Source of the DNA: Candidatus Omnitrophota bacterium
GTDB lineage: Bacteria; Omnitrophota; Gorgyraeia; Zapsychrales; JANLHA01
Direction: 5' to 3'
Assembly: GCA_963662715.1 (NCBI GenBank)
Contig: OY759724.1
Coordinates: 2,074,662 to 2,138,661, forward strand
DNA: 64,000 bases
Positions 1 through 25,247 of the stretch are shown here, in pieces. The number at the start of each line of letters is the position of its first letter. Within the stretch, counting starts at the first letter, position 1. Both the position numbers and the translations under genes were made by a program. Below the pieces are notes generated by a model. That model ran no database searches. It was not told where the DNA came from and saw nothing but the letters and a program-made list of their open reading frames with translations.

Positions 1-558
1 ATTTTGTTCGTGGGCCGCCTGGAAAAGGAAAAAAATTTATTCGCTCTGCTTGATGCCATACGGCAGACGCCCCTGACTCTTGATATTGTTGGGGAGGGGC
101 GGCTAAAAGATGAGTTGACAAGCTATATCAAAGTCAATAAGATAAAAGCCCGTTTGCTCGGCCGTATGGCTAATAGCCGATTGCCGGAGACATATAACCG
201 TTATCCGGTTTATATTCTGCCTTCCTTTTGCGAAGGCATGCCCAAAACCTTGCTGGAGGCCATGTCCTGCGGGATGGCTGTTATCGGCAGTGATATTGAA
301 GGAATCCATAATATTATCAAACATAAGGAGTCGGGATACTTATGCGATACAACGACGGAATCCATTAGGGACGCTGTCCGGGAAGTTATGGGGGACCCGT
401 CTTTAAGGCAAAGATGTGGCTCCCGGGCAAGGCGGTATATAGAAGAATATCATAGCCTTGACTCGATTGTCCGACAGGAGAAAAAAATTTACGGTTTTGA
501 TAATGAAAATAATAAAAAAGATTTTGTTAGCACTCTTCAGCAGGAAACTTGTTGCTAA
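1..558 (+). CDS. Glycosyltransferase family 4 (GT-B), C-terminal part; 5' end lies outside the window
   Basis: The frame is open from nt 1 (ILFVGRLEKEKN...). GT4 C-terminal motifs are present: LPSFCEGMPKTLLEAMSCGMAVIGSDIEG and GYL. Confidence 0.85.
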   Translation: MLFVGRLEKEKNLFALLDAIRQTPLTLDIVGEGRLKDELTSYIKVNKIKARLLGRMANSRLPETYNRYPVYILPSFCEGMPKTLLEAMSCGMAVIGSDIEGIHNIIKHKESGYLCDTTTESIRDAVREVMGDPSLRQRCGSRARRYIEEYHSLDSIVRQEKKIYGFDNENNKKDFVSTLQQETCC

Positions 559-1252
559 AATCATTGTCCGCAAAGCCCTGCAATGTCATACGCTGGCCTA
601 TAAATATGCCGGGCGTTTCAGCTGTTTTCTCGAACCTGGGGGCCTGCATCCGAAACACCGGCTTATGAATTATCATCAGTGGTTTATTGACCATATGAAT
701 AAAGACTGGACTGTCCTGGATGTCGGATGCGGGAACGGGGCCCTTTCGTATGACTTGGCATGTTCCTGTCGGCAGGTTATCGCCATCGATAAGAATCCCT
801 TGAATATAGAAAAGGCCAGGAGAAATTTTGCCTTGGGGAATATCGAATATATTTTAGGTGAAGTCCCTGCCTGTTTTGATGACAGAGTTTTTGACGCTGT
901 TGTCCTTTCTAATGTCCTGGAACATATTGCCGACCGGAAGGTCTTTTTGACTGAGATTATGAAAAAAACGAAAAGAATTCTCATACGCGTTCCCATGATC
1001 GATCGTGACTGGATTACCTTGTATAAAAAGGAATGGGGCTTGGAATGGCGTCTGGACCCTACCCATGAAATAGAGTATACCTCTGATCTGCTGGTTGCTG
1101 AACTCAGAGCGGCTGGCTTGGATGTTCAGACATGCGACAGAAGATTTGGAGAGTTGTATTGTCTGGCTGTCCCACTAAGTGAATCAAGAAAGGATCCATC
1201 AGATGAGCGTCTCCCCATTGCGGCGGGTTGCGGTGATTATTCCCTGTTTTAA
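503..1252 (+). CDS. Class I SAM-dependent methyltransferase
   Basis: SAM-binding motif I VLDVGCGNGALSYDLA, followed by VVLSNVLEHI. The start was chosen at ATG 503 (MKIIKK); the track start at 458 overlaps the upstream gene further. The start is uncertain. Confidence 0.8.
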   Translation: MKIIKKILLALFSRKLVAKIIVRKALQCHTLAYKYAGRFSCFLEPGGLHPKHRLMNYHQWFIDHMNKDWTVLDVGCGNGALSYDLACSCRQVIAIDKNPLNIEKARRNFALGNIEYILGEVPACFDDRVFDAVVLSNVLEHIADRKVFLTEIMKKTKRILIRVPMIDRDWITLYKKEWGLEWRLDPTHEIEYTSDLLVAELRAAGLDVQTCDRRFGELYCLAVPLSESRKDPSDERLPIAAGCGDYSLF

Positions 1253-1892
1253 CGAAGAATTGACGATAGAAAACGTTATCTGCGATTTTAAGGATAAAAT
1301 CCCGGAAGCGGATATTTTTGTCGTTGATAATTGTTCTTCCGACCGGACGGGGCAGGTCGCGGAAGCGGCCGGGGCTAAAGTGTTGCACGAACAGGCCCCG
1401 GGGAAGGGCAGTGTGATGCAGATCGCTTTCAATAAGATTTCTGCCGATGTCTTTGTGACGGTAGACGGGGATGCCACTTACAGCGCCTCTGACGTTAAAA
1501 AAATTCTTGCGCCTGTTATCGAAGGCCGGGCGGATATGGTTGTGGGCAACAGGCTGAACAATAGAAATGCCGAAGTCTGGACCCGTCATCGCGTCTGGGG
1601 GAACAGATGTATCTGTCGTTTCTTCAATCTGTTGTACGGGACAAAGTTTTCCGATATCCTTTCGGGGTACCGGGCTTTGTCCGCCGAAGCTGTTGAAGTG
1701 TTGTCTTGCCAGAGCAAAGGTTTTGAGATTGAGACGGAAATAACCGCAAAAGCTGTCATTCACAAACTTCGTGTACAAGAAGAACCTATCCATTATTATC
1801 AAAGACCGGAAGGCAGCAGTTCGAAATTAAGTGCATTCCAGGACGGGCTGAAAATTGTCGGTACAATGATCAGGCTTTGGCTTGCGGCCTAA
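1203..1892 (+). CDS. Glycosyltransferase family 2 (Dpm1/polyprenyl-phosphate glycosyltransferase-like)
   Basis: VAVIIPCFNEELTIENVI, VVDNCSSDRTG and VDGDATY (DXD) motifs. The start was taken at ATG 1203 (MSVSPLRR); 1179 is an alternative. Confidence 0.85.
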   Translation: MSVSPLRRVAVIIPCFNEELTIENVICDFKDKIPEADIFVVDNCSSDRTGQVAEAAGAKVLHEQAPGKGSVMQIAFNKISADVFVTVDGDATYSASDVKKILAPVIEGRADMVVGNRLNNRNAEVWTRHRVWGNRCICRFFNLLYGTKFSDILSGYRALSAEAVEVLSCQSKGFEIETEITAKAVIHKLRVQEEPIHYYQRPEGSSSKLSAFQDGLKIVGTMIRLWLAA

Positions 1893-1934
1893 AATTTCAT
1901 ATAAAATGCAGAAGGAAAATAAAGAGAAAAAAGA

Positions 1935-3521: not shown

Positions 3522-3698
3522 TTCTTGAAACTCTGAATCCAGCCGGAATTTCTGTCGGCCGGCGGCGGATCTGAATTTTTCCGGAATCCCGAAGGCGGGT
3601 TTGCTGATGGCAGCACGAAAGACATCCGGTGTTTCATGCTTGTAAAATTTTAAGAATAATGTAATATACTTACTTAAATTGTTTTTACGAAGGAGAAA

Positions 3699-4739
3699 AT
3701 GTCCGTGAAGAAGGCTTTAATAACCGGGGTGACAGGACAGGACGGGAGTTATCTGGCTGAACTTTTGCTCGACCAGGGCTATGAGGTCTATGGCCTCGTG
3801 CGACAAGAAGCTTTGGAAGATCCTAATCACAGGATGGAGAGATTTTTACATATCAGGGACAAGCTGAAATTGTCCGCCGCGTCTTTGGAAAGTTTTCCCA
3901 GCATTTTTAAGATCATTCAGGACGTCAAACCGGATGAGATTTATCATTTGGCCGCGCAGAGTTTCGTTTCTTATAGTTTTGATGACAAATTTTCCCCGCT
4001 GTTGACCAATATCAGCGGAACACATTATGCGCTTTCTTCCTGCAAATCCATGCCCGTTCCGGCCAAGTTTTATTTCGCCGGTTCGAGTGAAATGTTCGGG
4101 AAAGTGGATGCAGAACCCCAAAATGAATCAACGCCTTTTCATCCCCGGTCTCCTTACGGAATTTCCAAGGTGGCGGGTTTCCATTTGACCCGCAACTACC
4201 GTGAGTCTTACGAAATGTTTGCGTGTAACGGCATCTTATTCAATCATGAGTCTCCGCGCAGAGGATTTGAATTTGTCACCCGTAAAATCACATCCGGCGT
4301 GGCTAAAATTAAGTTCGGGCTGGCAGACAGGATCAGTTTAGGCAACCTGAACGCAAAACGCGACTGGGGATTTGCCGGGGATTATGTTAAAGCCATGTGG
4401 CTCATGTTGCAGCAGGAGAAGCCGGATGATTATGTTATTGCTACCGGTCATGCGCATACGGTGCGCGAATTTGTTGAGCTTTCGTTCAAGACGGTTGATA
4501 TGGAGATCCTTTGGGAAGGGAAGGGCATACACGAAAAAGGCATTGATGAGAAAAGCGGACGCGTTTTAGTTGATGTGAACAAAGAATTCTTCCGGCCCGA
4601 CCAAGTCCATGTCCTGAGAGGGGATTATACAAAAGCAAAAAGAATTTTAAACTGGGAACCAACCATTCAGTTCCATGATCTTGTCCCGATGATGGTCGAG
4701 GCGGATTGCCGTTTGTTCTCCCAGGACAAGATGCGATAA
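3699..4739 (+). CDS. gmd: GDP-mannose 4,6-dehydratase, divergent long-form paralogue
   Basis: N-terminal ALITGVTGQDGSYLAELLL Rossmann motif; GSSEMFG; PRSPYGISK (Y..K); [14 protein letters not shown]; [24 protein letters not shown] lies upstream of the ATG. Confidence 0.85.
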   Translation: MSVKKALITGVTGQDGSYLAELLLDQGYEVYGLVRQEALEDPNHRMERFLHIRDKLKLSAASLESFPSIFKIIQDVKPDEIYHLAAQSFVSYSFDDKFSPLLTNISGTHYALSSCKSMPVPAKFYFAGSSEMFGKVDAEPQNESTPFHPRSPYGISKVAGFHLTRNYRESYEMFACNGILFNHESPRRGFEFVTRKITSGVAKIKFGLADRISLGNLNAKRDWGFAGDYVKAMWLMLQQEKPDDYVIATGHAHTVREFVELSFKTVDMEILWEGKGIHEKGIDEKSGRVLVDVNKEFFRPDQVHVLRGDYTKAKRILNWEPTIQFHDLVPMMVEADCRLFSQDKMR

Positions 4740-4986
4740 AGGTGCGCAAATCATAACATTCGTCCTTAGAGTTGTTGGGTGACACGGCCGTAGCTACTGT
4801 TCTGTCAGCCCCGCCGCTGTGTTTAATGTGATTTTTTTGCTTCTAAGATACCCCTGCCGCTGGCCGTGGTTTTCCCGGGCAGACCGGGGTGAAAACATTA
4901 AACTCGTATCCACGAAGGAATGAAGCCTCATCCGTTGACCCCGTAGGTTGCCATGGGGAAGGCAGAAGGGTTTATTTATTTTCTCC

Positions 4987-7401
4987 ATGCAGAATAATAC
5001 ATGTCAAAAAAAGACGCGAAAGCAGAAAGGGCTGGCCGTTTTCTGTTTGGCTCTGGCGCTGTTCGTTTTGTTCGCTCCCGTGTTGACCGGGAAAAAAATT
5101 TTATTCCCATCCGACCTGCTGCACACGATGATCTCCCCTTATGCTGAGGGACGGTCTGTTCATGTTTACAATCATTTTTTGAATGACATTGTCGTTCAGT
5201 ATTTCCCGTACAAAAAATTAACTCAAACAGCCCTGCTGCAAGGGCGATGGGCTTACTGGAATCCTCTCATCCTCGGCGGGTATCCGCAATATGCTTTAAC
5301 GATGGCGGGAAATTTTGACGTGACGAACCTTCTGCTGGTTTTTATCCCTGACCCGCTTCAGGCCTATTTCGTTCAGATTCTTGCTCTGCTGTTCATCGCC
5401 GGCATCTCCATGTTCGCCTTGCTTCAATATTACCAGCTGCCTGTAAATGCCAGCCTGCTTGGTGCCGTCTGTTACATGCTGAACAGCATGTTTATTTGCA
5501 CGATCTTTTTCCCCTGGATTATGGGGGCGTTCTGCTGGATGCCGGCGGCGGTTTTATTCCTGGATAAAAGCCTGAGGGATAGGTTATTGCGGGACCAGGC
5601 GCTTTGCGCTTTATTGACAGGCTGTGCCATGATGGCCGCTTCTGTTCAGACGATGAGTTTTATTTTTTTCCTGACGTTTGTGTTTTCTGTTATGTACGGG
5701 TATGTCTTCGCCCGGACTTTCAGAGATGTCGCAACACTGGCTAAGATTTATTTGACGATACATGTCTGGGCCATAGGCCTGACAGCGGTCATGTTGTTGC
5801 CTACATTAGAACTTTTCTATTTTGACGCTATCCAAGGCGGACAATGGGGCAACGTAGGGCAGGGGGCCATCCCCTTTGTCAAGAGGCTGTGGGGAGTCGC
5901 CGGCGTGATTTCCTTTGCTTTCCCGCAATTGGCCGGGAGTGTCAGGGCCTTTGATCTAACAAAATTAGCATCCTCAACGATGATGTTTTATAACGGTTTT
6001 ATCGGCTTTCTTCCGCTGCTTTTCGGATTGTTAAGTGTCCGGAATATCAAGAAAGACAAAAGAATCATCATTTATATGACCATCACGTTGTTCGGCTTGC
6101 TTGTGCCGCTTGCTTCGCCGTTCTTAAAATATGTTTATCACCGTTTTTTTATTATTTATATTTTCGGCATGTCTGTCCTCTCAGCCTTTGGGCTGACATA
6201 TTATTTGCAATGGCAGGATAAGGATAAGATGGCTTCTTTTTTAAGAAAGGTCACAGCCCTTTTTGTGCTGGTGGTGCTTGTTCTGCTGGCCGGTCATGTG
6301 TTCATTCAGCTTTTTTATGATGACGTTCTTAAGCACGGCCGGAAATTTGTCGAGGCTCATCTGCACATGGCTAACTTGCTTGCCGGCAATCGGGGCTGGT
6401 ATTTGGGGCGCGTGGAGAAACTCTTGCAGCATTTCAACTTTTTTGCTCCGGCCATTTTCATCCCTGTCGCCACCATGGCCTTGGGCCTGGGAGCGCTTTG
6501 GGCCCACAGGGCCAACCGGCTGAAATCATCATTCACAGGCCTCATTTTATTTATCACAGTTTTTCAGCTTTTGTTCTTTGCCTGGAGCTGGCTGCCCATG
6601 GTCAGCCCTCAGGAATACCCTTTATATCCTGAGACGCAGTCGGTTAATTTTTTAAAAAAAGATCAAGATTTATACCGGGTTTTGATTTATAACAATAATA
6701 CGAATAGGAAGCCTGTTTATTCTCCGAATATTCTTTCTGTCTACGGCATCGAAACGATCAACGGTTATGAAAGCGTTGAGCCTAAAACGATAAGATATTT
6801 GATTCAGGGTATGGACCCTGCGGTTTTAGGCTTGTGCAACGTCAAATATATTATCACGCATGATGATCCTCCTTTACGGAGTCCTCATTTGCATTTAACA
6901 TGGGAGGGGGAAGGCCTGCATATATATGAGAATGAACTGTTCGTCCCGCGGGCTTTTTTCCGGTGTCAGCATGAAGTCAGATCCGAGACAGATATCCTTC
7001 AGGGCATTCGGACAGGCCGGTTGGATACCAGCCGGAAAGTCTTTTTCAGTGAAGGGTTGGGCGGGCAGGCCGGGGGGCAGCAAGGGGAGAATTTGCGAAA
7101 GCCTTTGATAAAATTAAGGCAATATTCCCCGGAAGAAGTTTTATATGAGGTCGAGACACAGGTGCCGGGCTATTTCGTGCTCAGTCAATCCTGGTATCCG
7201 GGGTGGACCTGTTATCTCGACGGCCGGCAGGAAGAAGTCAGAAAAGCGAATTATTGTATGCTGGCTGTCCGCGTCCCGGCCGGGAAACATAAAGTCCGGT
7301 TTGTATTCCGTCCGCGTATTTTTTATATAGGCCTTGCTGTAAGCTCGATATTTTTTCTGTTGATTCTTATTTCATTAAGGAAGAAAAGACATGCCTCTTA
7401 A
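4987..7401 (+). CDS. YfhO-family polytopic membrane protein (GT-C-like glycosyltransferase)
   Basis: About 800 aa with many TM segments. The C-terminal soluble region has the typical YPGWTCYLDGRQ...VPAGKHKVRFVFRP followed by a terminal TM. The start was set at ATG 4987 (MQNNTCQKK); 4948 is possible. Confidence 0.7.
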   Translation: MQNNTCQKKTRKQKGLAVFCLALALFVLFAPVLTGKKILFPSDLLHTMISPYAEGRSVHVYNHFLNDIVVQYFPYKKLTQTALLQGRWAYWNPLILGGYPQYALTMAGNFDVTNLLLVFIPDPLQAYFVQILALLFIAGISMFALLQYYQLPVNASLLGAVCYMLNSMFICTIFFPWIMGAFCWMPAAVLFLDKSLRDRLLRDQALCALLTGCAMMAASVQTMSFIFFLTFVFSVMYGYVFARTFRDVATLAKIYLTIHVWAIGLTAVMLLPTLELFYFDAIQGGQWGNVGQGAIPFVKRLWGVAGVISFAFPQLAGSVRAFDLTKLASSTMMFYNGFIGFLPLLFGLLSVRNIKKDKRIIIYMTITLFGLLVPLASPFLKYVYHRFFIIYIFGMSVLSAFGLTYYLQWQDKDKMASFLRKVTALFVLVVLVLLAGHVFIQLFYDDVLKHGRKFVEAHLHMANLLAGNRGWYLGRVEKLLQHFNFFAPAIFIPVATMALGLGALWAHRANRLKSSFTGLILFITVFQLLFFAWSWLPMVSPQEYPLYPETQSVNFLKKDQDLYRVLIYNNNTNRKPVYSPNILSVYGIETINGYESVEPKTIRYLIQGMDPAVLGLCNVKYIITHDDPPLRSPHLHLTWEGEGLHIYENELFVPRAFFRCQHEVRSETDILQGIRTGRLDTSRKVFFSEGLGGQAGGQQGENLRKPLIKLRQYSPEEVLYEVETQVPGYFVLSQSWYPGWTCYLDGRQEEVRKANYCMLAVRVPAGKHKVRFVFRPRIFYIGLAVSSIFFLLILISLRKKRHAS

Positions 7402-9322: not shown

Positions 9323-9348
9323 ACACCGGGCTATTTATGAGATGATGT

Positions 9349-10473: not shown

Positions 10474-10482
10474 GGAGATCTC

Positions 10483-12384: not shown

Positions 12385-12465
12385 GAAAACAGGGAATTTT
12401 TTGGCCCCCGAACGCCAGGAAGCTCAGTGTTCCTGAAAAATAATTGCGAGGAGGTCTTTTGAGAT

Positions 12466-14610: not shown

Positions 14611-15805
14611 CATTTATGAGTCTTTGGTTCGTTTAAAGGATTATTGTCAAAAGGCCGGTTATCAAGGATGGGATCCTTTTGACGGGTTGAATTCTGCCTT
14701 TTTTCAGGCATCTTTTTTAAGAAATTCCCCTTTGTTTCGGATGTGCTGGATTCAGTTCTTTAAGCGAAGCCCGGTTAACCTGCGGTCGGTCTTTCGTGTC
14801 CCCAAAGGATTCAATCCTAAAGGCATAGCTTTGTTCTTGCGCGGTTATGTCTGTCTGGCCCGGGCTTTTCAGGATGAAGCGGATTTCGCGGTTATTCGTT
14901 CCCTCGCGGAGACATTGCGTAATTCTGTTTCGGCCGGATACTCCGGGTCTTGCTGGGGATATAACTTCGACTGGCAGTCCCGGGCTTTTTTTGTCCCCCG
15001 CGGAACCCCGAATGTGATCGTCTCGACTTTTGCGGGACATGCTTTACTGGATGTTTATGAACTTCAGGGGGAAAAAAAATTCATGCAGATGGCGGTGTCT
15101 GTCAGCGATTTTATCCGGCAGGATTTAAACCGCCAGGAGGATCAGCACGGCGGAATGTGTTTCTCCTACACGCCTTTAGATCACTCACGGATTTTCAACG
15201 CATCTCTTTTGGCGTCGGCTTTTTTAGCCCGGGTTTACCGTTTAACCCGCGACCCCGCGCTTTTTATTGACGCCCAGAGGTCCGTGTCTTTTTGCTGCCG
15301 GCAGCAAAATGCCGACGGCAGCTGGTTTTACGGTATGAACCCGAATCAGCGATGGATCGACAGCTTCCATACGGCGTATAATCTGGAGGCCCTTTTTCAA
15401 TATCAGGATTGGACGGGAGATGATCAGTTTCAGGGATTTTTTGAAAAGGGTTTTTCTTATTATGCGAAAAATTTCTTTACCGAAGAAGGGGTCCCTAAAT
15501 ATTATCACAATCGTATTTATCCTGTTGATGTTCATTCCACGGCCGGCCTGATTTCTCTTATGCTGATATCCGGCCGTCATGCCCGATATGCTGATCTGAA
15601 TAAAAATGTATTGAAGTGGACAATTCGGCATATGCAGTCTAAAATAGGATACTTTTATTACCAAATTCACAAATGGTGCAAGATTGACATCCCGTATATC
15701 CGCTGGACGCAGGCATGGATGTTTTATGCGTTGAGCTTTTACGTGTATTATCTGAAAAAGAACCGTTTGGCTTTTTCATCCGAAGGAGATTGTCAGGAAG
15801 AATGA
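14603..15805 (+). CDS. Uncharacterised soluble enzyme of polysaccharide loci; a guess is an alpha/alpha-toroid fold, epimerase/lyase-like
   Basis: A 400-aa ORF that overlaps both neighbours (8 nt and 4 nt). Repeated aromatic-rich motifs (CWGYNFDWQSR, ADGSWFYG, IDSFHTAYNLEAL). The function was not recognised with confidence. Confidence 0.6.
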   Translation: MNDIYESLVRLKDYCQKAGYQGWDPFDGLNSAFFQASFLRNSPLFRMCWIQFFKRSPVNLRSVFRVPKGFNPKGIALFLRGYVCLARAFQDEADFAVIRSLAETLRNSVSAGYSGSCWGYNFDWQSRAFFVPRGTPNVIVSTFAGHALLDVYELQGEKKFMQMAVSVSDFIRQDLNRQEDQHGGMCFSYTPLDHSRIFNASLLASAFLARVYRLTRDPALFIDAQRSVSFCCRQQNADGSWFYGMNPNQRWIDSFHTAYNLEALFQYQDWTGDDQFQGFFEKGFSYYAKNFFTEEGVPKYYHNRIYPVDVHSTAGLISLMLISGRHARYADLNKNVLKWTIRHMQSKIGYFYYQIHKWCKIDIPYIRWTQAWMFYALSFYVYYLKKNRLAFSSEGDCQEE

Positions 15806-16911
15806 CACGAAGAAAAAAAGTCGTTTTTGTCGCCGGGGCCAGACCGAATTTCATGAAAATTGCCTGTCTGCTTAAGGAATGCCGCAAGTATAAGGCGATC
15901 CGGGCTATTGTTGTCCATTCCGGCCAGCATTATGATAACGAGATGTCGGAACAGTTTTTTAAAGATTTGGACATTGCTCCTCCCCGGTATTTTCTGGGGG
16001 TCGGGTCAGGGAGCCATGCCGAGCAGACAGGTCGTGTGATGGTGGCCTTCGAAAAGATCTGCCAAAAGGAGCGTCCCGATTACGTTGTGGTCGTCGGTGA
16101 TGTCAACTCCACGGTCGCGGCCTGCCTGGCCGCCAAGAAATGTCATATCCGCGTAGCCCATATCGAAGCAGGGTTGAGAAGTTTTGATATGGCGATGCCG
16201 GAAGAGATCAACCGCATGGTGACCGACAGTATTTCCGATGACCTCTTTGTCACGGAACAGAGCGGTGTCACCCATTTACGGAAAGAGGGGCATGCTGCGA
16301 AGAAAATTCATTTTGTCGGAAACACCATGATAGACAGCCTTATCCTGGCGATGAAAAAGATTCAACGTATGGACCCGCGGTCCTGGACGAGTTATCCTTT
16401 GCAGGAACAGTTGTCTTCTTATGGCTTGCTGACTCTGCACCGGCCCAGCAATGTTGACAGCAAAACGCAGCTTAAGCGATTGCTGGCTGTGGTTGATCAA
16501 GTGGCCCAGGAGATTCCCATCATATTCCCTGCGCATCCCCGGACCCGTAAAAGCATCAGAGAGTTTAAAGTTAAATTATCAAAGAATATTCATCTTACCC
16601 ATCCGTTAGGCTATTTGGAGTTTATCTTTTTATGCCAGAAAGCCGGATTCATTTTGACGGACAGCGGGGGGATTCAGGAAGAGACGACCTTTTTGAAAGT
16701 CCCCTGTTTCACTCTGAGGGCCAACACGGAACGTCCGGTCACTCTTGAAAAAGGGACGAACATCCTTGTCGGAAATAACATAGAGCAAATTCCCCGCCTC
16801 GTTCATCAGGTCCTCCGCGGTCAGTCCCGGGCGGGCCAGACGCCCCCTTTATGGGACGGGAGGGCCTCTCAGCGGATCATAAAAATTTTGGTGCGGAAAT
16901 TAATGATATGA
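15802..16911 (+). CDS. wecB: UDP-N-acetylglucosamine 2-epimerase (non-hydrolysing)
   Basis: VVFVAGARPNFMKI, HSGQHYD, VVVGDVNST, HIEAGLRSFD and LTDSGGIQEE motifs. ATG 15802 forms an ATGA overlap with the upstream stop. Confidence 0.9.
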   Translation: MTRRKKVVFVAGARPNFMKIACLLKECRKYKAIRAIVVHSGQHYDNEMSEQFFKDLDIAPPRYFLGVGSGSHAEQTGRVMVAFEKICQKERPDYVVVVGDVNSTVAACLAAKKCHIRVAHIEAGLRSFDMAMPEEINRMVTDSISDDLFVTEQSGVTHLRKEGHAAKKIHFVGNTMIDSLILAMKKIQRMDPRSWTSYPLQEQLSSYGLLTLHRPSNVDSKTQLKRLLAVVDQVAQEIPIIFPAHPRTRKSIREFKVKLSKNIHLTHPLGYLEFIFLCQKAGFILTDSGGIQEETTFLKVPCFTLRANTERPVTLEKGTNILVGNNIEQIPRLVHQVLRGQSRAGQTPPLWDGRASQRIIKILVRKLMI

Positions 16912-17681
16912 TAAGAGAGAGACGGATTAATATCCTGGACTGCCCCATTGATAACCTGAGCCGTAAAGAAACGGTGGCTCTGATTGAAGATATGATCCGT
17001 CAACGGCTCTCTTGCCAGCATGTCGTTATTAATGTTGACAAGCTTTTAAAAGTGCGGCGGGACCGGAAACTTCATGATATTATTTCTCAGTGCGACATCA
17101 TTAATGCTGACGGCATGCCGATTGTCTGGGTTTCCCGTTGGCTGGGCCAGCCTTTGCCGGAAAGGGTGGCCGGTATTGATCTGATGCATGATCTGGTGTC
17201 GTTGTCTGCGCAAAAGAACTATAGGATCTTTTTCCTGGGAGCCCGGCAGGATGTTGTGCAAGCCGTTGTCGGGAAATATCGGATGCTGTACCCGGACATT
17301 AACATTGTGGGGTTCCGGAACGGATACTGGCCGGAATCGGAAGAGGAAGACGTGGTTAACGAAATCAGAGCCGCGGCCCCGGATATCCTTTTTGTCGCGA
17401 TGAGCTCCCCGAAAAAGGAAATGTTTTTAAACAGATACCGGCAGAAACTTCGTGTCCCTTTTGTTATGGGCGTCGGAGGCAGCTTTGACGTGGTGGCCGG
17501 ATATACGCAACGGGCTCCCCTTTGGATGCAACGGCGTGGTCTGGAATGGCTGTTCCGTCTTATGCAGGAACCGAAACGCATGTGGAGACGATATTTGATC
17601 GGTAACACGCAATTTGTTTTTATCGTGGCCCGCGAGATGTTTGGTCCCAAGGCCAGAAGAAACAGCCCGCAGCATCAGTAA
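16908..17681 (+). CDS. WecG/TagA/CpsF-family glycosyltransferase (N-acetylmannosaminyl(uronosyl)transferase-like)
   Basis: INADGMPIVW, FFLGARQDVV, DILFVAMSSPKKE and LEWLFRL motifs. ATG 16908 forms an ATGA overlap with the wecB stop. Confidence 0.85.
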   Translation: MIRERRINILDCPIDNLSRKETVALIEDMIRQRLSCQHVVINVDKLLKVRRDRKLHDIISQCDIINADGMPIVWVSRWLGQPLPERVAGIDLMHDLVSLSAQKNYRIFFLGARQDVVQAVVGKYRMLYPDINIVGFRNGYWPESEEEDVVNEIRAAAPDILFVAMSSPKKEMFLNRYRQKLRVPFVMGVGGSFDVVAGYTQRAPLWMQRRGLEWLFRLMQEPKRMWRRYLIGNTQFVFIVAREMFGPKARRNSPQHQ

Positions 17682-17756
17682 GAATTTTATCCTGTTGCGC
17701 CCACGCGCTATTTTATTATCCCTCTACAATATAAAATAAGCCTGCCGTTCCTTCCC

Positions 17757-17783
17757 GTTCCGGATGGGGAAAAACTCCGGAAC
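17757..17783 (+). terminator. 8-bp hairpin downstream of the WecG-like gene; no T-tract, so terminator function is uncertain
   Basis: gttccgga (17757-17764) pairs with tccggaac (17776-17783) across an 11-nt loop. It lies in a 232-bp AT-rich spacer. Confidence 0.3.
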
Positions 17784-17913
17784 AGGAAAAATTATTGGCA
17801 GGTGTTTTGAAAAATGCTGTATGGATGTATAATTGATATTGCGAAATTAAAAATGAATAGGTAAAATGTAACATTATTAAAATTTATCATTCTAATACTA
17901 ATAATCTTTTTGT

Positions 17914-19323
17914 ATGATCACTTCCATCAGAAAAATCTATCCTCTTTATATCTTCATTGATTTTGTCTTGATCTGGAGCAGTTTTATCATTCCGTATTTT
18001 TTAAAATACAACGCCATTACGGATATTTTCCGGGTGATCACGCTGCCCAACCTTGATCAGTATATTTTTATCTTCGTTCTTTGGACGATATTTATCGTCA
18101 GTTTTTTTCAGGGAAAAGGTCTTTACGCCACGGACCGGAGCCTGCCCATCCCCAAAGAAATGGCGCGGGTGGCCTTAAATCTTTTTTATGTCAGCGTGAT
18201 CATGGCCGCCATCATATTTTTCGCTCAGTATAAATTTTTTTCCCGGAAGGTCTTCCTGGAGAACTTTTTGTCTTTATGTTTTTTGCTGGGAGGGTGGAGG
18301 GTCATCAAGAGGCTTATTCTGCGCAAGCTGATCGCCGGCGGCTTTCATAATATTAATGTCTTGATTGTCGGGGCCGGAAAAGTCGGGGGCGTCGTTCTGG
18401 AGGAAATCCGGCAGAATCCGCAGTGGGGATTCCATATTGTCGGATTCCTGGACGATCGTAAAGAGGAAATCGACGGATTCCCTGTCCTCGGGAAGGTGCG
18501 GGACTTTCCCTCGGTGGCCCGGAAACACTTTGTCGATGAAATTGTTGTGACAATCCCGTCTGTGCGGGAACTTATCGGGGATATTATCAAGAAGGCCAAA
18601 ACCATGCATCTCGGGGTGAGAATCGTTCCGGAGAATTTTGAAGGGCCGCTGTCTTTTATCGAAATCAATTATATGGGCATCATTCCCTTGCTGACATATA
18701 AACAGCGGAAACATCATCCTACGGAGTTTGCCCTTAAACGGCTGTTTGATATCATGCTGTCATTCGTGTTTATTGTTTTGTCATCCCCTTTATTTGTTGT
18801 TATCTCCCTTTTGATTAAATGGGATTCTCCGGGGCCGGTTTTTTATGTCCAACAGAGGGTCGGATTAAAAGGGAAGCGTTTTAATCTGTTTAAATTCCGT
18901 TCCATGTTCGATGGCGCTGAGCAAATGAAGTCCAGACTGTTAAATAATAATGAAGTGAAAGACGGTGTTATTTTTAAAATGAAAAAGGATCCCCGGGTCA
19001 CCCGTTTCGGGAAGTTGTTGCGGAAGTACAGCCTGGATGAATTGCCGCAGCTTTTTAATGTTTTTAAAGGGGACATGAGCCTGGTCGGCCCCCGGCCGCC
19101 GACCCCGGATGAGGTTGAACAATATCAACAGCAGGATTTGCAGCGCTTGTCCATCCGGCCGGGTGTTACGTGCATTTCTCAGGTCCGGGGCCGAAGCGAC
19201 CTGTCGTTTAAAAGATGGGTTAAATGGGATTTGTGGTATATCAATAACTGGTCTTTTGGTTTAGATATGCAGATTCTGCTGTGGACCGTGCCCGCCGTCA
19301 TAAAAGGAAAAGGAGCTTACTGA
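17914..19323 (+). CDS. Polyprenyl-phosphate glycosyl-1-phosphate transferase (WbaP/exopolysaccharide initiating 'bacterial sugar transferase')
   Basis: N-terminal TM segments and a central Rossmann-like VLIVGAGKVGG region. The C-terminal catalytic domain has KRLFDIMLS..., PGPVFYVQQRVG, FKFRSM, DELPQL and GDMSLVGPRP. Confidence 0.9.
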   Translation: MITSIRKIYPLYIFIDFVLIWSSFIIPYFLKYNAITDIFRVITLPNLDQYIFIFVLWTIFIVSFFQGKGLYATDRSLPIPKEMARVALNLFYVSVIMAAIIFFAQYKFFSRKVFLENFLSLCFLLGGWRVIKRLILRKLIAGGFHNINVLIVGAGKVGGVVLEEIRQNPQWGFHIVGFLDDRKEEIDGFPVLGKVRDFPSVARKHFVDEIVVTIPSVRELIGDIIKKAKTMHLGVRIVPENFEGPLSFIEINYMGIIPLLTYKQRKHHPTEFALKRLFDIMLSFVFIVLSSPLFVVISLLIKWDSPGPVFYVQQRVGLKGKRFNLFKFRSMFDGAEQMKSRLLNNNEVKDGVIFKMKKDPRVTRFGKLLRKYSLDELPQLFNVFKGDMSLVGPRPPTPDEVEQYQQQDLQRLSIRPGVTCISQVRGRSDLSFKRWVKWDLWYINNWSFGLDMQILLWTVPAVIKGKGAY

Positions 19324-19335
19324 TGCTGGAAAGGC

Positions 19336-20637
19336 GTGGACAGGTCAATGGCCGGAAATATTAATGTCTCTGCCATCATCCGTTTCTTGCTGTTCGGCCT
19401 TATTGTCTGCCTGCCTTATAGCAAAGCTATTATTGAGACATGTGTCATTCTTTCCCTGGTGCTCTGGTTCTCAGTGCGCCTGAAGCTTCTCGTTCATCCC
19501 AAAGGCCCTGACCGGCAGGGGGGGGCTTCCCGGAGCTGGGGTGATGTTATAAAACCTCCTCCAACACCCCTCAACACAGCGATTTTGTTTTTTGTCATCA
19601 TTTGTTTGTGTTCTGCCGTTTTCAGCATTAATCCCGCGAAATCTTTCCATGGTTTTATCACAAAAACGCTGGAATGGTTTGCCGTATTTTATCTCATGGT
19701 CGGGGTCTTTACGACCAAGAGACAGCTGGCCACGGCGGTTGTCCTTTATCTTGCGACATCATGCGTGACGTGTTTGGACGGCATCGTGCAATTTTACTGG
19801 TTAGGGCATGACGTGATCCGTCAGCGTTTGTTGATCCGGGACGGAGCCACAGCTGCTTTCTCTCATCCCAACAGCCTTGCCGGTTATCTGACCATTGTCG
19901 TGCCCTGCGTATTTTCCCTGTGTTTTTCCCCGGGGCTAAAAGTAAGGCTTCGTCTGGCGTTAATGTCTTTGTGGAGTATTATGAGCTGGGCCTTGATCCT
20001 GACCTTCTCCCGGTCGGGCATTTTCGCCGGTCTGGCGGGGGTCCTGTTTTTTATTTGCCATAAGAGCAAGCCCGTATTTATCTGGATATGTATTCTCGCC
20101 GTTTTGCTCGCCGGAAGTTTTTTGCGTTTTGCGCCTCATGAGGTCCGCAAGCGTACGCGTACCCGGCCGGAAATTGTTTCGGATGATGTGAAATGGCGGT
20201 GGCATCTCTGGCAGGACAGCTTGGCTTTGGTCCGGGAGAGGCCGTGGGTGGGCCACGGATTGAATACTTATATGGATCTGATACATCGCAAAAGACCTGA
20301 TGCGGCTCCGGTTTATGCACATAACTGTTACGTTCAAATCATGGTGGAAACCGGCGTTCTGGGCCTGGCAGGTTTCCTGTGGATCCTGTTCGCCCTTGGA
20401 AAAGCCGTATTCGGAAGCCTGTCAAGCCCGACGGACCGTGTTGCCGACCGGCGGCTATCAGGCCTTATTCTAGGTTTGTATTCAGGGGTGGTCGCGTTTT
20501 TGGTCCACAGCTTTTTTGAAGTCCATTTTTATTCTTTGCAACTATCAGTTTACTTTTGGCTTATTGCCGGTATACTAATCTCTGGAATCTCTATGCAGAC
20601 GCATTATAAGAAATGTGAAGAAAATATTATTATTTGA
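19336..20637 (+). CDS. O-antigen ligase/polymerase-like membrane protein (Wzy_C-type), paralogue 2
   Basis: Polytopic; motifs [11 protein letters not shown] and [17 protein letters not shown]. Start is GTG 19336 or ATG 19348. Confidence 0.8.
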
Positions 20638-20653
20638 AGAGGGAGGCTCATCC

Positions 20654-21667
20654 ATGAAAAAGAGAAAAGTGGCCCTGATCACCGGTATTACGGGACAGGA
20701 TGGCGCTTATTTGTCGGAATTATTGCTTAAAAAGAAATATGATGTTTATGGACTGATCAGACGGTCCAGCACGTTCAATACAACACGCATTGATCATCTC
20801 TATCAGGATCCTCATGAAAAGGATGTTCAATTGCGGCTGCTTTACGGGGATCTCAATGACGCGAGTTCTCTGAACCGGATTATCAGGACTATAAAACCGG
20901 ACGAGATATATAATCTTGGAGCGCAGAGTCATGTCAAGGTCAGTTTTGAGATCCCGGAATACACGGGAGAGATTGTCGGGCTGGGGACGACGCGTCTGCT
21001 GGAAGCCATACGGGATTCAGGTATTAAAGCGAAATTTTATCAGGCTTCAAGCAGTGAAATGTTTGGTAAAGTTCTCGAGATCCCTCAATCTGAAAAGACC
21101 CCGTTTTATCCCCGCAGCCCTTATGCGGCGGCGAAAGTCTACTCTTATTGGATGACCGTCAATTACCGGGAAGCTTATAATATTTTCGCCTGCAACGGTA
21201 TTCTTTTTAACCATGAATCTCCCCGGAGAGGGGAGACCTTCGTGACCCGGAAAATTACCATGGCCCTGGCCCGGATTAAACACGGAGTGCAGGATAAGCT
21301 TTTTTTAGGGAATCTGGACGCTAAAAGAGACTGGGGTTTTGCCGGGGATTATGTTGAAGCCATGTGGTTGATGTTGCAGCAGAAGACCCCGGCTGATTAT
21401 GTCATCGCGACCGGCCAGACGCATTCTGTGCGGGAATTTCTTTTAGAAGCGTTCTCCTATTTAAAGATGGATTGGAAAAAACATGTCAGGATCGATAAGC
21501 GCTATTTCCGGCCAACGGAAGTAGATCTCCTCATAGGCAACAGTTCAAAAGCCCGCAGAAAATTGAAATGGAAACCCCGAGTGAACTTTAAGCAGTTAGT
21601 CCGTATGATGGTTGATGCTGACCTGGAACTAGTTGAACGTCAGCTTTACGGCCAGAAGAAATCTTAA
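20654..21667 (+). CDS. gmd: GDP-mannose 4,6-dehydratase, canonical short-form paralogue
   Basis: [58 protein letters not shown] and [24 protein letters not shown] lies before ATG 20654; the track start at 20615 is an upstream extension. Confidence 0.9.
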
Positions 21668-21685
21668 GATCCTTTAGAGATCATC

Positions 21686-23155
21686 ATGATGAATAACTTT
21701 AGGAACTGGACTGAAAAAGGCATCGTCTACTCTTTCTATGCCTTGATTTATTTTTTGCCTATCTCTACGGCTTTAGTCGAAATTTTCTCTACCTGTATTA
21801 TTTTGTGTTATTTGTCGAGGATGGGGGTTCTCCTTCTGAATCGGGGCGCCGTGGCCGATGGGGCCGGTGGTCCGGTGCGGGATTCTTCTCCATCGGAGAA
21901 GATGTTTTTCGGAGCCTGTGTCCTGTTCCTGGCCGCGAATATCCTGTCCACCCTGACGAGTCAATATCCCTGGGTGAGCTTTAAAGCCCTGTTTTTTAAG
22001 CTGAGTCAGGGGCTGGTGCTGATGCATGCGTTTTCTTTGGTGATGCTGACGCAAAAACGGATAAAAATATTTATAACCGTTTTTTTGGTTTCGGCAACCT
22101 TATCGTCTGTTAATGCCATTTTCCAATCTTTTTCCGGTCATGGTTTCGTGAGAGGTTTTTCGCTGGTGGAGGAGGCCCGGGTTACGTCTTCCTTCAAACA
22201 TCCCAATGATTTTGGCGGATATCTTATTGTTGTCAGTTCGGTTGTCCTGTCTTTGATTGTCACAGGGATTTATGAAGCCTTTTTTTATAAAAAACAGCAG
22301 GAATCGGTCGGCGGGGCTGCTTCGACCCCGGTCTTTGTCTGGATCTGGATCGGGAGTCTGTTGATCCTGACTTTATGGAGTTTGGGGCTGACTTTTTCCC
22401 GGGGAGCCTGGCTGGGATTTATTATCGCGGTGTTATGCCTGGCTTTTTACAGGAAGAAAGTTTTTTTCTTGTTGATAGGGCTCTGTGTGCTTTTTCTCCT
22501 GATCTTCCATCCTCAGTTATACAAAGTCCGGGGAAGGAATTTAAGAGTTTATAACCCCAAAGGCGTTGTTATAAAACCTAAAGACGTAAAGAAAATTATG
22601 GCGCCGGATCAGGAGCCTCCGCCTTCGGCACAGGACCGGTCTTTGAAGAATGACCTGGAATCCCAAGGGCATAAAAATTATATTCAGGCCGTTTTTAAGA
22701 AAGTATTAACGGTTTTTGAGGTTCTTGCCGGAAAAAGCATGGGCAGGTTTGGTTTTTGGAAAGAAGCCATGCTTATTGTCAAAGACTACCCTTTGTGCGG
22801 GGCCGGGCTGAACACCTATTCCAAGGTGGCTCCCCGGTACAAGATTAACTGGGGCGGGTATCCGCATAACTGTTACCTGCACATGGCAGCTGAAACCGGT
22901 GTGTTAGGTTTGGGCCTCTTTTTAGGCCTTGTTGTGATTTTTTTGTGTCACGCATGGACGAAAATTCATTTGGTGACGCCGCCGTATTTATTGTCCGTCT
23001 CCCTGGGAGGCGTGGCCGGGTTGTCAGGCTTTTTGGTGCAATGTTTTTTCGATACCAACCTTTATTCTGTGCAGTTAAACAGTCTTTTTTGGATTTTCAT
23101 CGGGTTGGTCTTAGCGGCTATAAGGACCGGCCGGCCGTACGGTTCAGAGTCATGA
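21686..23155 (+). CDS. O-antigen ligase/polymerase-like membrane protein (Wzy_C-type), paralogue 3
   Basis: Polytopic; motifs TFSRGAWLGF and YPHNCYLHMAAETGVLGLG. Confidence 0.8.
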   Translation: MMNNFRNWTEKGIVYSFYALIYFLPISTALVEIFSTCIILCYLSRMGVLLLNRGAVADGAGGPVRDSSPSEKMFFGACVLFLAANILSTLTSQYPWVSFKALFFKLSQGLVLMHAFSLVMLTQKRIKIFITVFLVSATLSSVNAIFQSFSGHGFVRGFSLVEEARVTSSFKHPNDFGGYLIVVSSVVLSLIVTGIYEAFFYKKQQESVGGAASTPVFVWIWIGSLLILTLWSLGLTFSRGAWLGFIIAVLCLAFYRKKVFFLLIGLCVLFLLIFHPQLYKVRGRNLRVYNPKGVVIKPKDVKKIMAPDQEPPPSAQDRSLKNDLESQGHKNYIQAVFKKVLTVFEVLAGKSMGRFGFWKEAMLIVKDYPLCGAGLNTYSKVAPRYKINWGGYPHNCYLHMAAETGVLGLGLFLGLVVIFLCHAWTKIHLVTPPYLLSVSLGGVAGLSGFLVQCFFDTNLYSVQLNSLFWIFIGLVLAAIRTGRPYGSES

Positions 23156-23174
23156 GGGCCCCTGTCCCATTTCA

Positions 23175-23202
23175 TTGACAAATCGTTTTGCCTGAGTATA
23201 AT
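23175..23202 (+). promoter_or_regulatory. Consensus sigma-70-type promoter upstream of pgk
   Basis: TTGACA (23175-23180), a 16-nt spacer, then TATAAT (23197-23202), about 55 nt upstream of the pgk start. Confidence 0.6.
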
Positions 23203-23261
23203 ATATCGAGTTATTTATTAGTATAGTCTTAGTTAATAAGTTAATAGAAAGAGGAATGAGT

Positions 23262-25237: not shown

Positions 25238-25247
25238 GGTGTTTATT

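Follow-up and report, generated by a model that had tools for sequence, protein, structure and literature searches.

The first 23,155 nucleotides of the DNA analysed (a 64-kb stretch from Candidatus Omnitrophota, hereafter the window) are a glycan-assembly cluster with every gene on one strand, which we tentatively regard as a conserved cell-envelope (surface) glycan locus of this phylum. It is a known pathway, the assembly of surface sugar chains, in variant form: three distant copies of a WaaL-type enzyme (P1, P2 and P3), a type whose usual task is to join completed sugar chains to the lipid of the outer membrane, lie in one locus, in an arrangement conserved across the phylum. Because the three form separate conserved orthologous groups, carry a ligase-type Arg/Arg/His set and show no likeness to the E. 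coli polymerases WzyE, WbbH and WcaD, it is reasonable to read the locus as performing three transfer steps that are not redundant, or as making several glycoconjugates. What is new is the source, Candidatus Omnitrophota, and the recurrence in distant members of the phylum of the trio together with the block WecG-PGT-P2-Gmd-P3-pgk-tpiA-secG.

Results

Pfam and NCBIfam profile searches assigned families to 17 genes of 1-23155 (Table 1), and the open reading frames lie where a first-pass annotation of this DNA had placed them. Its count of six glycosyltransferase domains (the GT4 fragment, the single GT2, two in the GT2 fusion, the second GT4 and WecG), one methyltransferase and one initiating polyprenyl-phosphate glycosylphosphotransferase was borne out by Pfam and TIGR03025 (425 bits vs a cut-off of 296); a GT-C protein of the YfhO family and three polytopic proteins of WaaL fold complete this set. 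The largest intergenic gap in 1-23300 is at most 247 nt.

Table 1. Genes of the glycan-assembly cluster, with window coordinates and profile evidence.
Feature	Coordinates	Strand	Evidence
GT4 glycosyltransferase, C-terminal 184 aa; gene starts upstream of window	4..558	+	PF00534 E 1.4e-29
Class I SAM methyltransferase	458..1252	+	PF08241 and PF13649
GT2 glycosyltransferase, soluble, 237 aa, immediately 5' of P1	1179..1892	+	PF00535 E 5.7e-23
P1: divergent WaaL-fold (GT-C_B) polytopic transferase, 528 aa	1935..3521	+	candidate catalytic R200, R391, H441
GDP-mannose 4,6-dehydratase paralogue 1	3699..4739	+	PF16363 E 2.4e-123
YfhO-family GT-C membrane glycosyltransferase, 804 aa	4987..7401	+	PF09586 45.9 bits
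Two fused GT2 domains, 643 aa, soluble	7391..9322	+	PF00535 in two stretches
GT4 glycosyltransferase	9349..10473	+	PF00534 E 7.3e-37
Asparagine-synthase-type glutamine amidotransferase	10483..12384	+	PF00733 and GATase_7
ADH_zinc_N + Gfo/Idh/MocA oxidoreductase fusion	12466..14610	+	PF00107 and PF01408
Soluble 400-aa protein, weak alpha/alpha-toroid (GH88/GH127) similarity	14603..15805	+	PF07470 E 3.5e-4, below cut-off
UDP-GlcNAc 2-epimerase (WecB type)	15715..16911	+	PF02350 E 2e-106
WecG/TagA/CpsF-family glycosyltransferase	16851..17681	+	PF03808 E 7e-66
Initiating polyprenyl-phosphate glycosylphosphotransferase (PGT; WbaP/WcaJ class)	17914..19323	+	PF02397, PF13727; TIGR03025
P2: Wzy_C / O-antigen-ligase family protein, 429 aa, compact	19348..20637	+	PF04932 74.7 bits
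GDP-mannose 4,6-dehydratase paralogue 2, between P2 and P3	20615..21667	+	PF16363 E 5e-145
P3: Wzy_C / O-antigen-ligase family protein, 489 aa	21686..23155	+	PF04932 73.6 bits; candidate catalytic R239, R354, H394

Many of these genes recur in related loci. The truncated GT4 has full-length 372-aa orthologues in L001 and L004, and both the methyltransferase (63-67% identical, at the same position) and the GT2 fusion (73-75% identical) have orthologues in L001-L003, from which GDP-mannose 4,6-dehydratase paralogue 1, present in L004, is missing. Paralogue 2 is highly conserved (80-88% identity in L005, L006 and L008). The single GT2 has zero transmembrane segments by hydropathy; a GT2 is likewise paired with P1 in L006, L008 and L012-L014. 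The amidotransferase resembles TIGR03108 (484 bits, under that model's cut-off) and is probably a sugar-acid amidase; the L005 orthologue of the 400-aa soluble protein gave no match in a Pfam scan. The true start of the WecB-type epimerase is probably near nt 15802, since the alignment with its L005 orthologue starts at residue 30. The PGT and one GT2 also gave sub-threshold matches to HfsE and HfsG.

The translations confirm the first-pass claim that three polytopic proteins share the motifs SR(A/S/G) and (P/A)HN(S/C)Y. The full set reads SSR200A, W-R391-ILVW and P-H441-N-S-Y...Y-R450-AGALG in P1; FS-R222-SG, W-R284-WHLW and A-H325-N-C-Y...V-E334-TGVLG in P2 (429-aa numbering, start at nt 19348); and FS-R239-GA, G-R354-FGFW and P-H394-N-C-Y...A-E403-TGVLG in P3. 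P2 and P3 are true paralogues (25% identity over full length, BLASTP E 7e-25) and exceed the cut-off of the Pfam Wzy_C model PF04932 (31.7 bits), but P1 does not (18.7 bits, E 0.0016). The P2 family profile matched 7tpg_B, the WaaL of Cupriavidus metallidurans, among PDB sequences (E 4e-14), with R222/R284/H325 aligned directly onto WaaL R191/R265/H313, and it matched E. coli WaaL at 23.7 bits. Matches to two experimentally characterised WaaL ligases are what an LPS route predicts, and sequence likeness makes P2 the best candidate for a lipid A-core ligase among the three.

The membership of P1 needed a separate argument. Its BLASTP similarity to P2 and P3 is not significant (E 0.03-0.2), so that the motif match by itself is not above chance, and its family profile gave zero matches among PDB sequences; together with the Pfam score, these results would suit a locus with only two Wzy_C proteins and a chance motif in a third, hydrophobic one. 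That explanation is highly implausible, being contradicted by hhalign of the family alignments, which joins P1 to P2 with 96% probability (E 2.5e-9) and to P3 with 92%. Roughly one in two P1 homologues exceeds the PF04932 cut-off, and invariant Arg and His residues stand at the aligned positions. The profile alignment and the Pfam matches of its homologues thus establish the homology of P1. P1 carries a disordered loop (residues ∼298-378), and P3 an expanded one (residues 283-350).

In all three proteins the Arg/Arg/His set of the WaaL structure is retained, and these residues are invariant or nearly so inside each family. P1 R391/H441 align to P2 R284/H325 by hhalign; the first Arg of P1 and of P3 comes from weaker alignments, for P1 R200 was placed on P2 R222 by BLASTP alone, at a weak E of 0.046, and the family profile of P3, itself weakly aligned to WaaL, put the first Arg on R168 instead of R191. 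In WaaL the set has roles in Und-PP binding and acceptor activation, and inverting polymerases of the same CAZy clan (GT-C1) have Asp or Glu at the position of the His (PMC10920833). If this rule of His in ligases and Asp/Glu in clan GT-C1 polymerases holds, none of the three is polymerase-like, which weakens a polymerase role for P1 and P3. The E. coli polymerases WzyE, WbbH and WcaD were not matched by any of the three family profiles.

The Wzy_C domain and its essential His are common to WaaL ligases and all known O-oligosaccharyltransferases (PMC9829042), which bears out the earlier caution that the domain name assigns no function and means that the two activities are not separable by sequence and fold. 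Accessory domains of the PglL_A or Wzy_C_2 type were absent from a Pfam scan at E ≤ 10, and no pilin or other acceptor gene lies beside the three, their neighbours being sugar-nucleotide enzymes, glycosyltransferases and pgk. Fusions to TPR or LamG domains occur among the homologues of P3 and P1.

P1, P2 and P3 occur together in one locus in at least five divergent Omnitrophota lineages, in which the WecG-to-secG block is intact; this recurrence marks them as three old orthologous groups. P1 lies beside a GT2 in the variable, glycosyltransferase-rich half of the locus. P1 itself is not hypervariable, its C-terminal 140 residues keeping 47-50% identity in distant relatives.

The YfhO-family GT-C assignment made at first pass holds, with PF09586 above its cut-off (28.5 bits; the match covers the C-terminal 80 residues only) and the deposited protein beginning at nt 4987. 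Hydropathy indicates ∼13 N-terminal transmembrane segments, a C-terminal domain outside the cytoplasm and one transmembrane segment at the end. It has 33,925 representative homologues, of which those listed include full-length matches, and 40 of 40 sampled full-length homologues match PF09586. NCBIfam returned only PgfM1/PgfM2 of streptococcal protein glycosylation, weakly (31-32 bits) and at the C-terminus only. YfhO enzymes are extracytoplasmic GT-C transferases with C55-P-sugars as donors (PMC5836110, PMC8035078). No membrane-anchored GtrB/CsbB-type GT2 lies nearby, and the gaps are too small for a GtrA-type flippase gene. YfhO is confined to the closest relatives; other loci have PMT_2-type GT-C or unassigned polytopic proteins instead.

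No Wzx/MurJ, Wzz, Poly_export or ABC-2 Pfam family was found in any scanned ORF of the window, and none of its remaining short ORFs is Wzx-like by hydropathy. The first-pass statement that the 23 kb hold no wzx, wzz, wza/wzc or wzm/wzt is therefore sound, and extends to the ORFs scanned or checked in the whole window. None of these genes was found in the 8 kb upstream in the closest relatives, nor Wzz or Poly_export in eleven Pfam-annotated views of related loci. Canonical Wzx (PF01943/PF13440) lies inside ∼6 of 59 related P1 loci (∼10%), L013 among them, and in the close relative L001 an MsbA/PglK-type ABC exporter (31% identity to MsbA) and a heptosyltransferase-like gene of family GT9 lie 5-9 kb upstream of P1. 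Such GT9 genes upstream in L001 and L004 are an LPS context in these relatives. The missing flippase is thus most simply encoded elsewhere. The annotation had gone on to propose several glycoconjugates or a protein/lipid route rather than a classical cluster; the ligase-type sites and three orthologous groups make several glycoconjugates reasonable, but the absence of a flippase is weak evidence in view of the Wzx-bearing loci and the L001 exporter, and P2 matches WaaL with no PglL domain in sight.

Discussion

Starting from what is shown, namely which genes are present, their fold, their conserved residues and a synteny that spans the phylum, we infer an order of steps, an acceptor for each enzyme and a location for the flippase. 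With some hesitation, we favour a locus working through an undecaprenyl-diphosphate-linked intermediate, with P2 as lipid A-core ligase, P1 and P3 serving other acceptors and the YfhO protein adding a side branch. The WbaP-class phosphoglycosyltransferase would prime the lipid carrier at the cytoplasmic face, and the WecG-family enzyme, GT4s and GT2s would extend the chain, with ManNAc-type sugars supplied by WecB, 6-deoxyhexoses by the two GDP-mannose dehydratases, other sugars by the amidotransferase/oxidoreductase module, and methyl groups by the methyltransferase. A transporter encoded outside the window would flip the lipid-linked glycan, and at the outer face P1, P2 and P3 would each perform inverting en-bloc transfer from the Und-PP-glycan. 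P2, compact and nearest to the solved and genetically proven WaaL, would transfer it to lipid A-core; P3, an ancient P2 paralogue with an enlarged loop, and P1, very divergent and GT2-paired, may use other acceptors: perhaps the growing chain itself, which would be a polymerase role, or perhaps a second lipid or a protein. Outside the cytoplasm, the YfhO-family protein may attach a side-branch sugar with an Und-P-monosaccharide as donor. Several observations count against this scheme: WecG/TagA enzymes classically act on a primer made by WecA/TagO and not on a WbaP-type one, the YfhO protein is without its GtrB/CsbB-type and GtrA-type partners, flippase, chain-length and export genes are absent from the window and from the 8 kb upstream in relatives, and the first Arg of P3 falls on WaaL R168 in a weak profile alignment.

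In a classical Wzx/Wzy polysaccharide pathway, P1 and/or P3 would be redundant or specialised repeat-unit polymerases and P2 the ligase, with Wzx, Wzz and export genes elsewhere. Consistent with this are the in-locus Wzx of L013 and about five other related loci, the place of P1 in the variable half near a GT2, like that of serotype-specific polymerases, the sub-threshold HfsE and HfsG matches, and a polysaccharide cassette described from Omnitrophota in which Wzc, an O-antigen ligase and heptosyltransferase II occur (bioRxiv 10.64898/2026.05.20.726742). However, we consider it somewhat unlikely given the His where same-clan polymerases have Asp/Glu (PMC10920833), the unmatched E. coli polymerases, the absence of Wzz and Poly_export in the eleven related views, and the conserved P1 C-terminus.

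General protein O-glycosylation, in which at least one of P1-P3 would, like PglL, TfpO or PglS, move Und-PP-glycan to Ser/Thr of surface proteins (for example pilins or S-layer-like proteins) and the YfhO protein would act as PgfM1/PgfM2 do in streptococci, is unlikely. The profile of P2 matches bona fide WaaL of two species, the GT9 genes of relatives point to LPS, and neither PglL_A or Wzy_C_2 domains (E ≤ 10) nor an adjoining acceptor gene was found, although the essential His of all known O-oligosaccharyltransferases is present in all three (PMC9829042), the YfhO protein has its weak Pgf matches, some P3 and P1 homologues carry the often protein-binding TPR/LamG fusions, and neither Wzz nor a polymerase-type partner can be seen.

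The undecaprenyl-diphosphate route with P2 as ligase can be set beside several known systems. The YfhO/CsbB/GtcA systems (Bacillus subtilis and Listeria teichoic acids, streptococcal Pgf) likewise place a YfhO GT-C architecture amid glycan-synthesis genes, but have the membrane-anchored GT2 and small GtrA/GtcA-type flippase that are not found nearby here, and belong to Firmicutes rather than to a diderm-type PVC-group bacterium; here, moreover, YfhO is a feature of the closest relatives only, with PMT_2-type GT-C or unassigned polytopic proteins elsewhere. Helicobacter pylori makes O-antigen with the ABC flippase Wzk and WaaL, without Wzy or Wzz. The present locus resembles that route in that its ligase-type enzyme is accompanied by no recognisable polymerase or regulator of chain length, and in the L001 exporter, but this exporter is of generic type and found in one relative only, and the initiating enzyme is WbaP-class, not WecA. 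Wzx/Wzy-dependent O-antigen, exopolysaccharide and holdfast loci, such as those of E. coli colanic acid and Caulobacter hfs with its paralogous holdfast polymerases HfsC/HfsI, share a WbaP-class initiator, WecG-family, GT2 and GT4 enzymes, sugar-nucleotide genes and the presence of at least two Wzy_C-type membrane enzymes; the window differs in lacking Wzx, PCP (Wzz/Wzc) and OPX (Wza), in its active-site His, and in being fixed beside housekeeping genes phylum-wide. PglL, TfpO/PilO, PglS and TfpM have in common with the trio the essential Wzy_C His and en-bloc Und-PP-glycan transfer at the periplasmic face, but no sequence relationship was detected beyond the Wzy_C domain, and PglL_A/Wzy_C_2 and an adjacent pilin or acceptor gene are absent here. 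WaaL O-antigen ligase (CAZy GT121; 7TPG/7TPJ, C. metallidurans) differs in having one member per locus instead of three; P1 and P3 also carry long low-confidence loops ahead of the catalytic Arg helix, P1 scores under the Pfam threshold, and lipid A-core is a presumed acceptor, the genes adjoining a phosphoglycosyltransferase and pgk rather than a waa core cluster. With WaaL the trio shares the Wzy_C domain and Arg/Arg/His at matching positions, and the profile of P2 matches the enzymes of both C. metallidurans and E. coli.

Results

The cluster at 1-23155 comprises 17 genes, every one on the + strand and each overlapping its neighbor or lying no more than 247 nt from it; it is closed by P3, one of three WaaL-fold polytopic proteins (P1, 528 aa; P2, 429 aa; P3, 489 aa), and a phosphoglycerate kinase gene (pgk) starts at 23256. 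Gene assignments made with Pfam and NCBIfam (table below) agree with the count in the first-pass annotation of six glycosyltransferase (GT) domains, one methyltransferase, and one initiating phosphoglycosyltransferase (PGT). The two copies of GDP-mannose 4,6-dehydratase (Gmd) are ∼49% identical; the window holds no GDP-fucose synthase/reductase partner for them, and an Fcl-like epimerase directly follows the second copy in three distant Omnitrophota loci (L006, L008, and L099). The module at 10483-15805 (amidotransferase, ADH/Gfo-Idh-MocA fusion, and 400-aa protein, the last of which falls into no assigned family) is kept in the closest relatives only.

Genes of the cluster, with the basis of each assignment
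Product	Position (nt)	Strand	Basis
GT4, cut by window start	4-558	+	Pfam/NCBIfam
SAM methyltransferase	458-1252	+	Pfam/NCBIfam
GT2, soluble	1179-1892	+	Pfam/NCBIfam
P1	1935-3521	+	Wzy_C-like; PF04932 18.7 bits, sub-threshold
GDP-mannose 4,6-dehydratase, first copy	3699-4739	+	Pfam/NCBIfam
YfhO-family protein	4987-7401	+	PF09586
Double GT2	7391-9322	+	Pfam/NCBIfam
GT4	9349-10473	+	Pfam/NCBIfam
Asparagine-synthase-type amidotransferase	10483-12384	+	Pfam/NCBIfam
ADH/Gfo-Idh-MocA fusion	12466-14610	+	Pfam/NCBIfam
Soluble protein, 400 aa	14603-15805	+	Weak, sub-threshold GH88/GH127 toroid-hydrolase similarity
WecB	15715-16911	+	Pfam/NCBIfam
WecG/TagA-family transferase	16851-17681	+	Pfam/NCBIfam
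WbaP-class phosphoglycosyltransferase	17914-19323	+	TIGR03025 above cut-off
P2	19348-20637	+	PF04932 74.7 bits
GDP-mannose dehydratase, second copy	20615-21667	+	Pfam/NCBIfam
P3	21686-23155	+	PF04932 73.6 bits

Nearly all genes of the whole window (1-64000) are on the + strand, and GC skew is positive in each 2-kb bin, its cumulative curve climbing steadily; together these features place the window, by prediction, within one replichore with its genes co-oriented with replication. Outside the cluster, the N-terminal stretch of a signal-peptidase S26 ORF (59429-60175) matches Sigma70 region 1.1 (E = 8e-7), which may be an artefact of the ORF start, given that the ORF and the end of lepA overlap. 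In two further ORFs (46959-47876, 305 aa; 62666-63433, 255 aa) the N-terminus resembles a signal peptide or that of a lipoprotein, and Pfam gave no match.

Three Wzy_C paralogues had been described in the cluster from shared motifs. The motifs are present in P1, P2, and P3, but only P2 and P3 pass the curated PF04932 (Wzy_C) cut-off of 31.7 bits; these two are full-length paralogues of each other (25% identity, E = 7e-25), whereas P1 falls below the cut-off and showed no significant similarity to either by BLASTP. Its homology emerges by other routes: an alignment of the P1 family (45 sequences) matched the P2 family in hhalign with 96% probability (E = 2.5e-9) and the P3 family with 92%, about half of the P1 homologues carry PF04932, and a Foldseek search with the AlphaFold model of P1 (pLDDT 83.6, pTM 0.82; disordered at 298-315 and 329-378) returned a WaaL ligase as its only credible match. 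P1-P3 share the WaaL-type polytopic GT-C_B fold that characterizes the PF04932/GT121 family. The three lines of evidence on P1 contradict the notion that the sub-threshold P1 score is a chance match, which we regard as extremely improbable, and P1 is a deeply divergent clade added to the WaaL/O-oligosaccharyltransferase (O-OTase) group. Extra TPR or LamG (PF13385) domains occur in one P1-family homologue (P0020) and in several of the P3 family (P0079, P0083-P0085, P0092, P0104, P0105, P0111, P0121, P0123, P0132, P0133, and P0140), which suggests that these proteins may bind a protein or glycan partner.

Single-sequence searches of P1-P3 against the PDB returned no match, so family profiles were needed for structural comparison. 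In the WaaL O-antigen ligase of Cupriavidus metallidurans (7TPG), R191 and R265 bind Und-PP and H313 activates the acceptor, and the place of the His is taken by Asp or Glu in the inverting polysaccharide polymerases of this CAZy clan (GT-C1; PMC10920833); the same His, in the Wzy_C domain, is essential in all known O-OTases (PMC9829042). The P2 family profile aligned to 7TPG at E = 4e-14, with R222, R284, and H325 exactly on R191, R265, and H313. P3 R354 and H394 aligned directly to R265 and H313, while R239 was placed via P2 and is less certain, the direct weak alignment having put it one helix earlier, at R168. In P1, R391 and H441 aligned to P2 R284 and H325 by hhalign, and R200 to R222 in a weak BLASTP alignment (E = 0.046). 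The Arg/Arg/His set is invariant or nearly so within each family, and the acceptor-activating position is an invariant His in all three, with no polymerase-type Asp or Glu. Considered together with the essential His of the known O-OTases, these sites predict ligase/OTase-like chemistry for P1, P2, and P3; the set does not separate a lipid from a protein acceptor.

The characterised proteins used for comparison were E. coli K-12 WaaL, WzyE, WbbH, and WcaD and the 7TPG sequence. E. coli WaaL was detected by the P2 profile only (23.7 bits; hhalign E = 9e-5 over 197 columns), and none of the three profiles matched WzyE, WbbH, or WcaD, three references for a very diverse group of polymerases, or any Wzx. 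S. meliloti ExoQ, a characterised Wzy_C-type polymerase, was also sought as a reference; the plasmid gene reached was an uncharacterised O-antigen-ligase-like one from a different cluster and was dropped.

Almost all named homologues of P1, P2, and P3 come from Candidatus Omnitrophota MAGs. The closest relatives (L001-L005, 52-62% identity) share the whole gene order with the cluster, and four distant loci (L006, L008, L098, and L099; ∼30-40% identity) keep WecG-PGT-P2-Gmd-(Fcl-like)-P3 followed by pgk-tpiA-secG-opp, sometimes past a few extra genes; L006 and L008 have a GT2-paired P1 homologue 8-10 kb upstream of P2. Retention of this order from close to distant Omnitrophota shows that P1-P3 are three ancient orthologous groups in non-redundant positions rather than recent duplicates, and because the block order survives at 30-40% P2/P3 identity, the surface-glycan block is fixed beside glycolysis and secretion genes. 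The order WecG-PGT-P2-Gmd-P3-pgk-tpiA-secG-oppABCDF (16851-31263 and 31390-33729 in the window) also occurs in L005, L006, L098, and L099, and in L098, as in the window, a ∼775-aa TPR protein follows the block. The PGT (8550-9960) and pgk (13889-15074) of L005, the closest relative, are each split into two called genes, probably by assembly frameshifts. Three further distant relatives have, upstream of the GT2-P1 pair, a conserved cassette (L012:1018-8863, L013:1222-8930, and L014:1-6908) of SIS, transaldolase-like, HpcH/HpaI aldolase, HAD phosphatase, two SDR, CMP-sugar cytidylyltransferase, and 2-hydroxyacid dehydrogenase genes that looks like a CMP-activated acidic-sugar pathway.

The lack of wzx, wzz, and export genes first noted over 23 kb held throughout the 64-kb window, where Pfam found no Wzx/MurJ, Wzz, Poly_export, or ABC-2 protein among the scanned ORFs (those left unscanned were too short or not polytopic); nor was Wzz seen in annotated relatives. 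The possibility that one of the polytopic proteins in the window is a disguised Wzx was rejected, as none resembles WzxE, RfbX, or WzxC of E. coli or the Wzx of L013. The region upstream of the window start was read by proxy, as the 8 kb beyond the equivalent point in L001, L002, and L004. L002 and L004 have there methyltransferases, GT4-like genes, radical-SAM enzymes, a deacetylase, and a GT9 heptosyltransferase-like gene, and no wzx, wzz, or export gene; L001 has an ABC exporter along with a NeuB fragment, GT2, FkbM methyltransferase, and GT9. This 628-aa protein (L001:1097-2983) is of the MsbA/PglK/Sav1866 type, is 31% identical to E. coli MsbA, and lies between the GT2 and the FkbM methyltransferase/GT9 pair, 7-9 kb upstream of P1. 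It is a generic type-IV exporter, as close to many others as to MsbA, and its sequence does not point to a particular substrate.

A metagenome scan for the P1 family yielded 80 loci. Counts were made over 59 P1-containing loci of at least 8 kb each, drawn from the scan and from loci fetched earlier: canonical Wzx is present in ∼6 and YfhO in five, all close relatives, and ∼7 polytopic neighbors match PMT_2-type GT-C. Most other polytopic neighbors belong to recurrent families without a Pfam match (five gave none even at E ≤ 1), and these have no homologue in the window. At least five such families, with 7-12 TM segments, were observed (L008:3430-4782, L008:5139-7070, L012:15560-17251, L012:19074-20534, L013:13343-14845, L013:16141-17166, L014:15831-19364, and others), and they are candidates for unrecognised flippases, polymerases, or GT-C enzymes. 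This locus and its close relatives thus truly lack a flippase, but loci of the type do not always do so, since ∼6 of the 59 have canonical Wzx. Most simply, the flippase would be encoded at another site; one that escapes recognition may exist among the unassigned families of other lineages.

PF09586 matches the YfhO-family protein at 45.9 bits (cut-off 28.5), covering its last 80 residues only, and was found in 40 of 40 sampled homologues; an exhaustive search gave 33,925 representative homologues, and the matches listed include full-length ones. Its hydropathy (∼13 TM segments as far as residue 540, then soluble sequence over 540-775 and a last TM segment at 776-799) fits the predicted family architecture of a polytopic N-terminal module, an extracytoplasmic C-terminal domain, and a terminal TM segment. 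By sequence, the family profile has no relative of solved structure.

Discussion

Our study shows a cluster that is conserved across the phylum and encodes three ligase-type WaaL-fold enzymes, of which one belongs to a deeply divergent clade; the genes, motifs, and counts of the first-pass annotation were confirmed, while its interpretation was only partly supported. Omnitrophota are very small, widespread bacteria, most of them uncultured. Many are thought to attach to other cells or to live off them, which makes their surface glycans the probable mediators of such contacts. The three-ligase locus provides concrete target genes for the building and distribution of surface glycans in an uncultured phylum, and the P1 clade widens the WaaL/O-OTase group, whose enzymes are used to glyco-engineer conjugate vaccines. 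Both chemistry and pathway logic are already well known, and the locus overturns neither.

We tentatively favor a scheme, short of calling it probable, in which an Und-PP-linked heteroglycan would be assembled in the cytoplasm, flipped by a transporter encoded outside the window, and handled at the outer face by the ligase-type P1, P2, and P3. P2 would ligate the glycan to lipid A-core, and is the best candidate for this step because it is compact and closest to the proven WaaLs; P3 and P1 would perform the same chemistry on other acceptors, which could be the growing chain or else a second acceptor, lipid or protein, and the YfhO protein would add a periplasmic side-branch. The GT9 genes of the relatives fit an LPS setting, as does a published Omnitrophota cassette of heptosyltransferase II, O-antigen ligase, and Wzc (bioRxiv 10.64898/2026.05.20.726742).

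A classical Wzy pathway with several polymerases, which the canonical Wzx of some related loci would suit, appears rather unlikely: Wzx/Wzy-dependent polymerases have co-located Wzx and Wzz/Wzc, none of which is in the window, and the invariant His stands where inverting polymerases have Asp or Glu. Protein O-glycosylation would agree with that same His and with an active site that serves either kind of acceptor, yet we consider it unlikely, as the hallmarks of the known systems are missing around and within P1-P3 (below). Quite improbable is a broader proposal, a phylum-wide, housekeeping-linked glycosylation hub in which the three enzymes would serve lipid A-core, surface proteins, and a third target with no dedicated polymerase, the P1 clade would form a new GT-C_B family with an acceptor unlike any studied, and among the Pfam-less polytopic proteins of related loci there would be a lipid-linked-glycan flippase of a new type.

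YfhO systems are normally paired with a C55-P-sugar synthase and a GtrA/GtcA flippase, whereas this locus has no membrane-anchored synthase of the GtrB/CsbB type (its GT2 proteins lack TM segments) and no small GtrA/GtcA-type flippase beside YfhO, where gaps of at most 247 nt leave no room for a small ORF. Among O-OTases, the TfpO, PglS, and TfpM types have an adjacent pilin or acceptor gene, whereas P1-P3, in the window and its relatives, adjoin no pilin or dedicated acceptor gene, their neighbors being PGT, Gmd, GT2, and pgk. PglL carries PglL_A and Wzy_C_2 accessory domains, whereas P1-P3 showed neither PglL_A (PF15864) nor Wzy_C_2 even at E ≤ 10. What P1-P3 have in common with PglL, TfpO, PglS, and TfpM is the essential His of the Wzy_C type.
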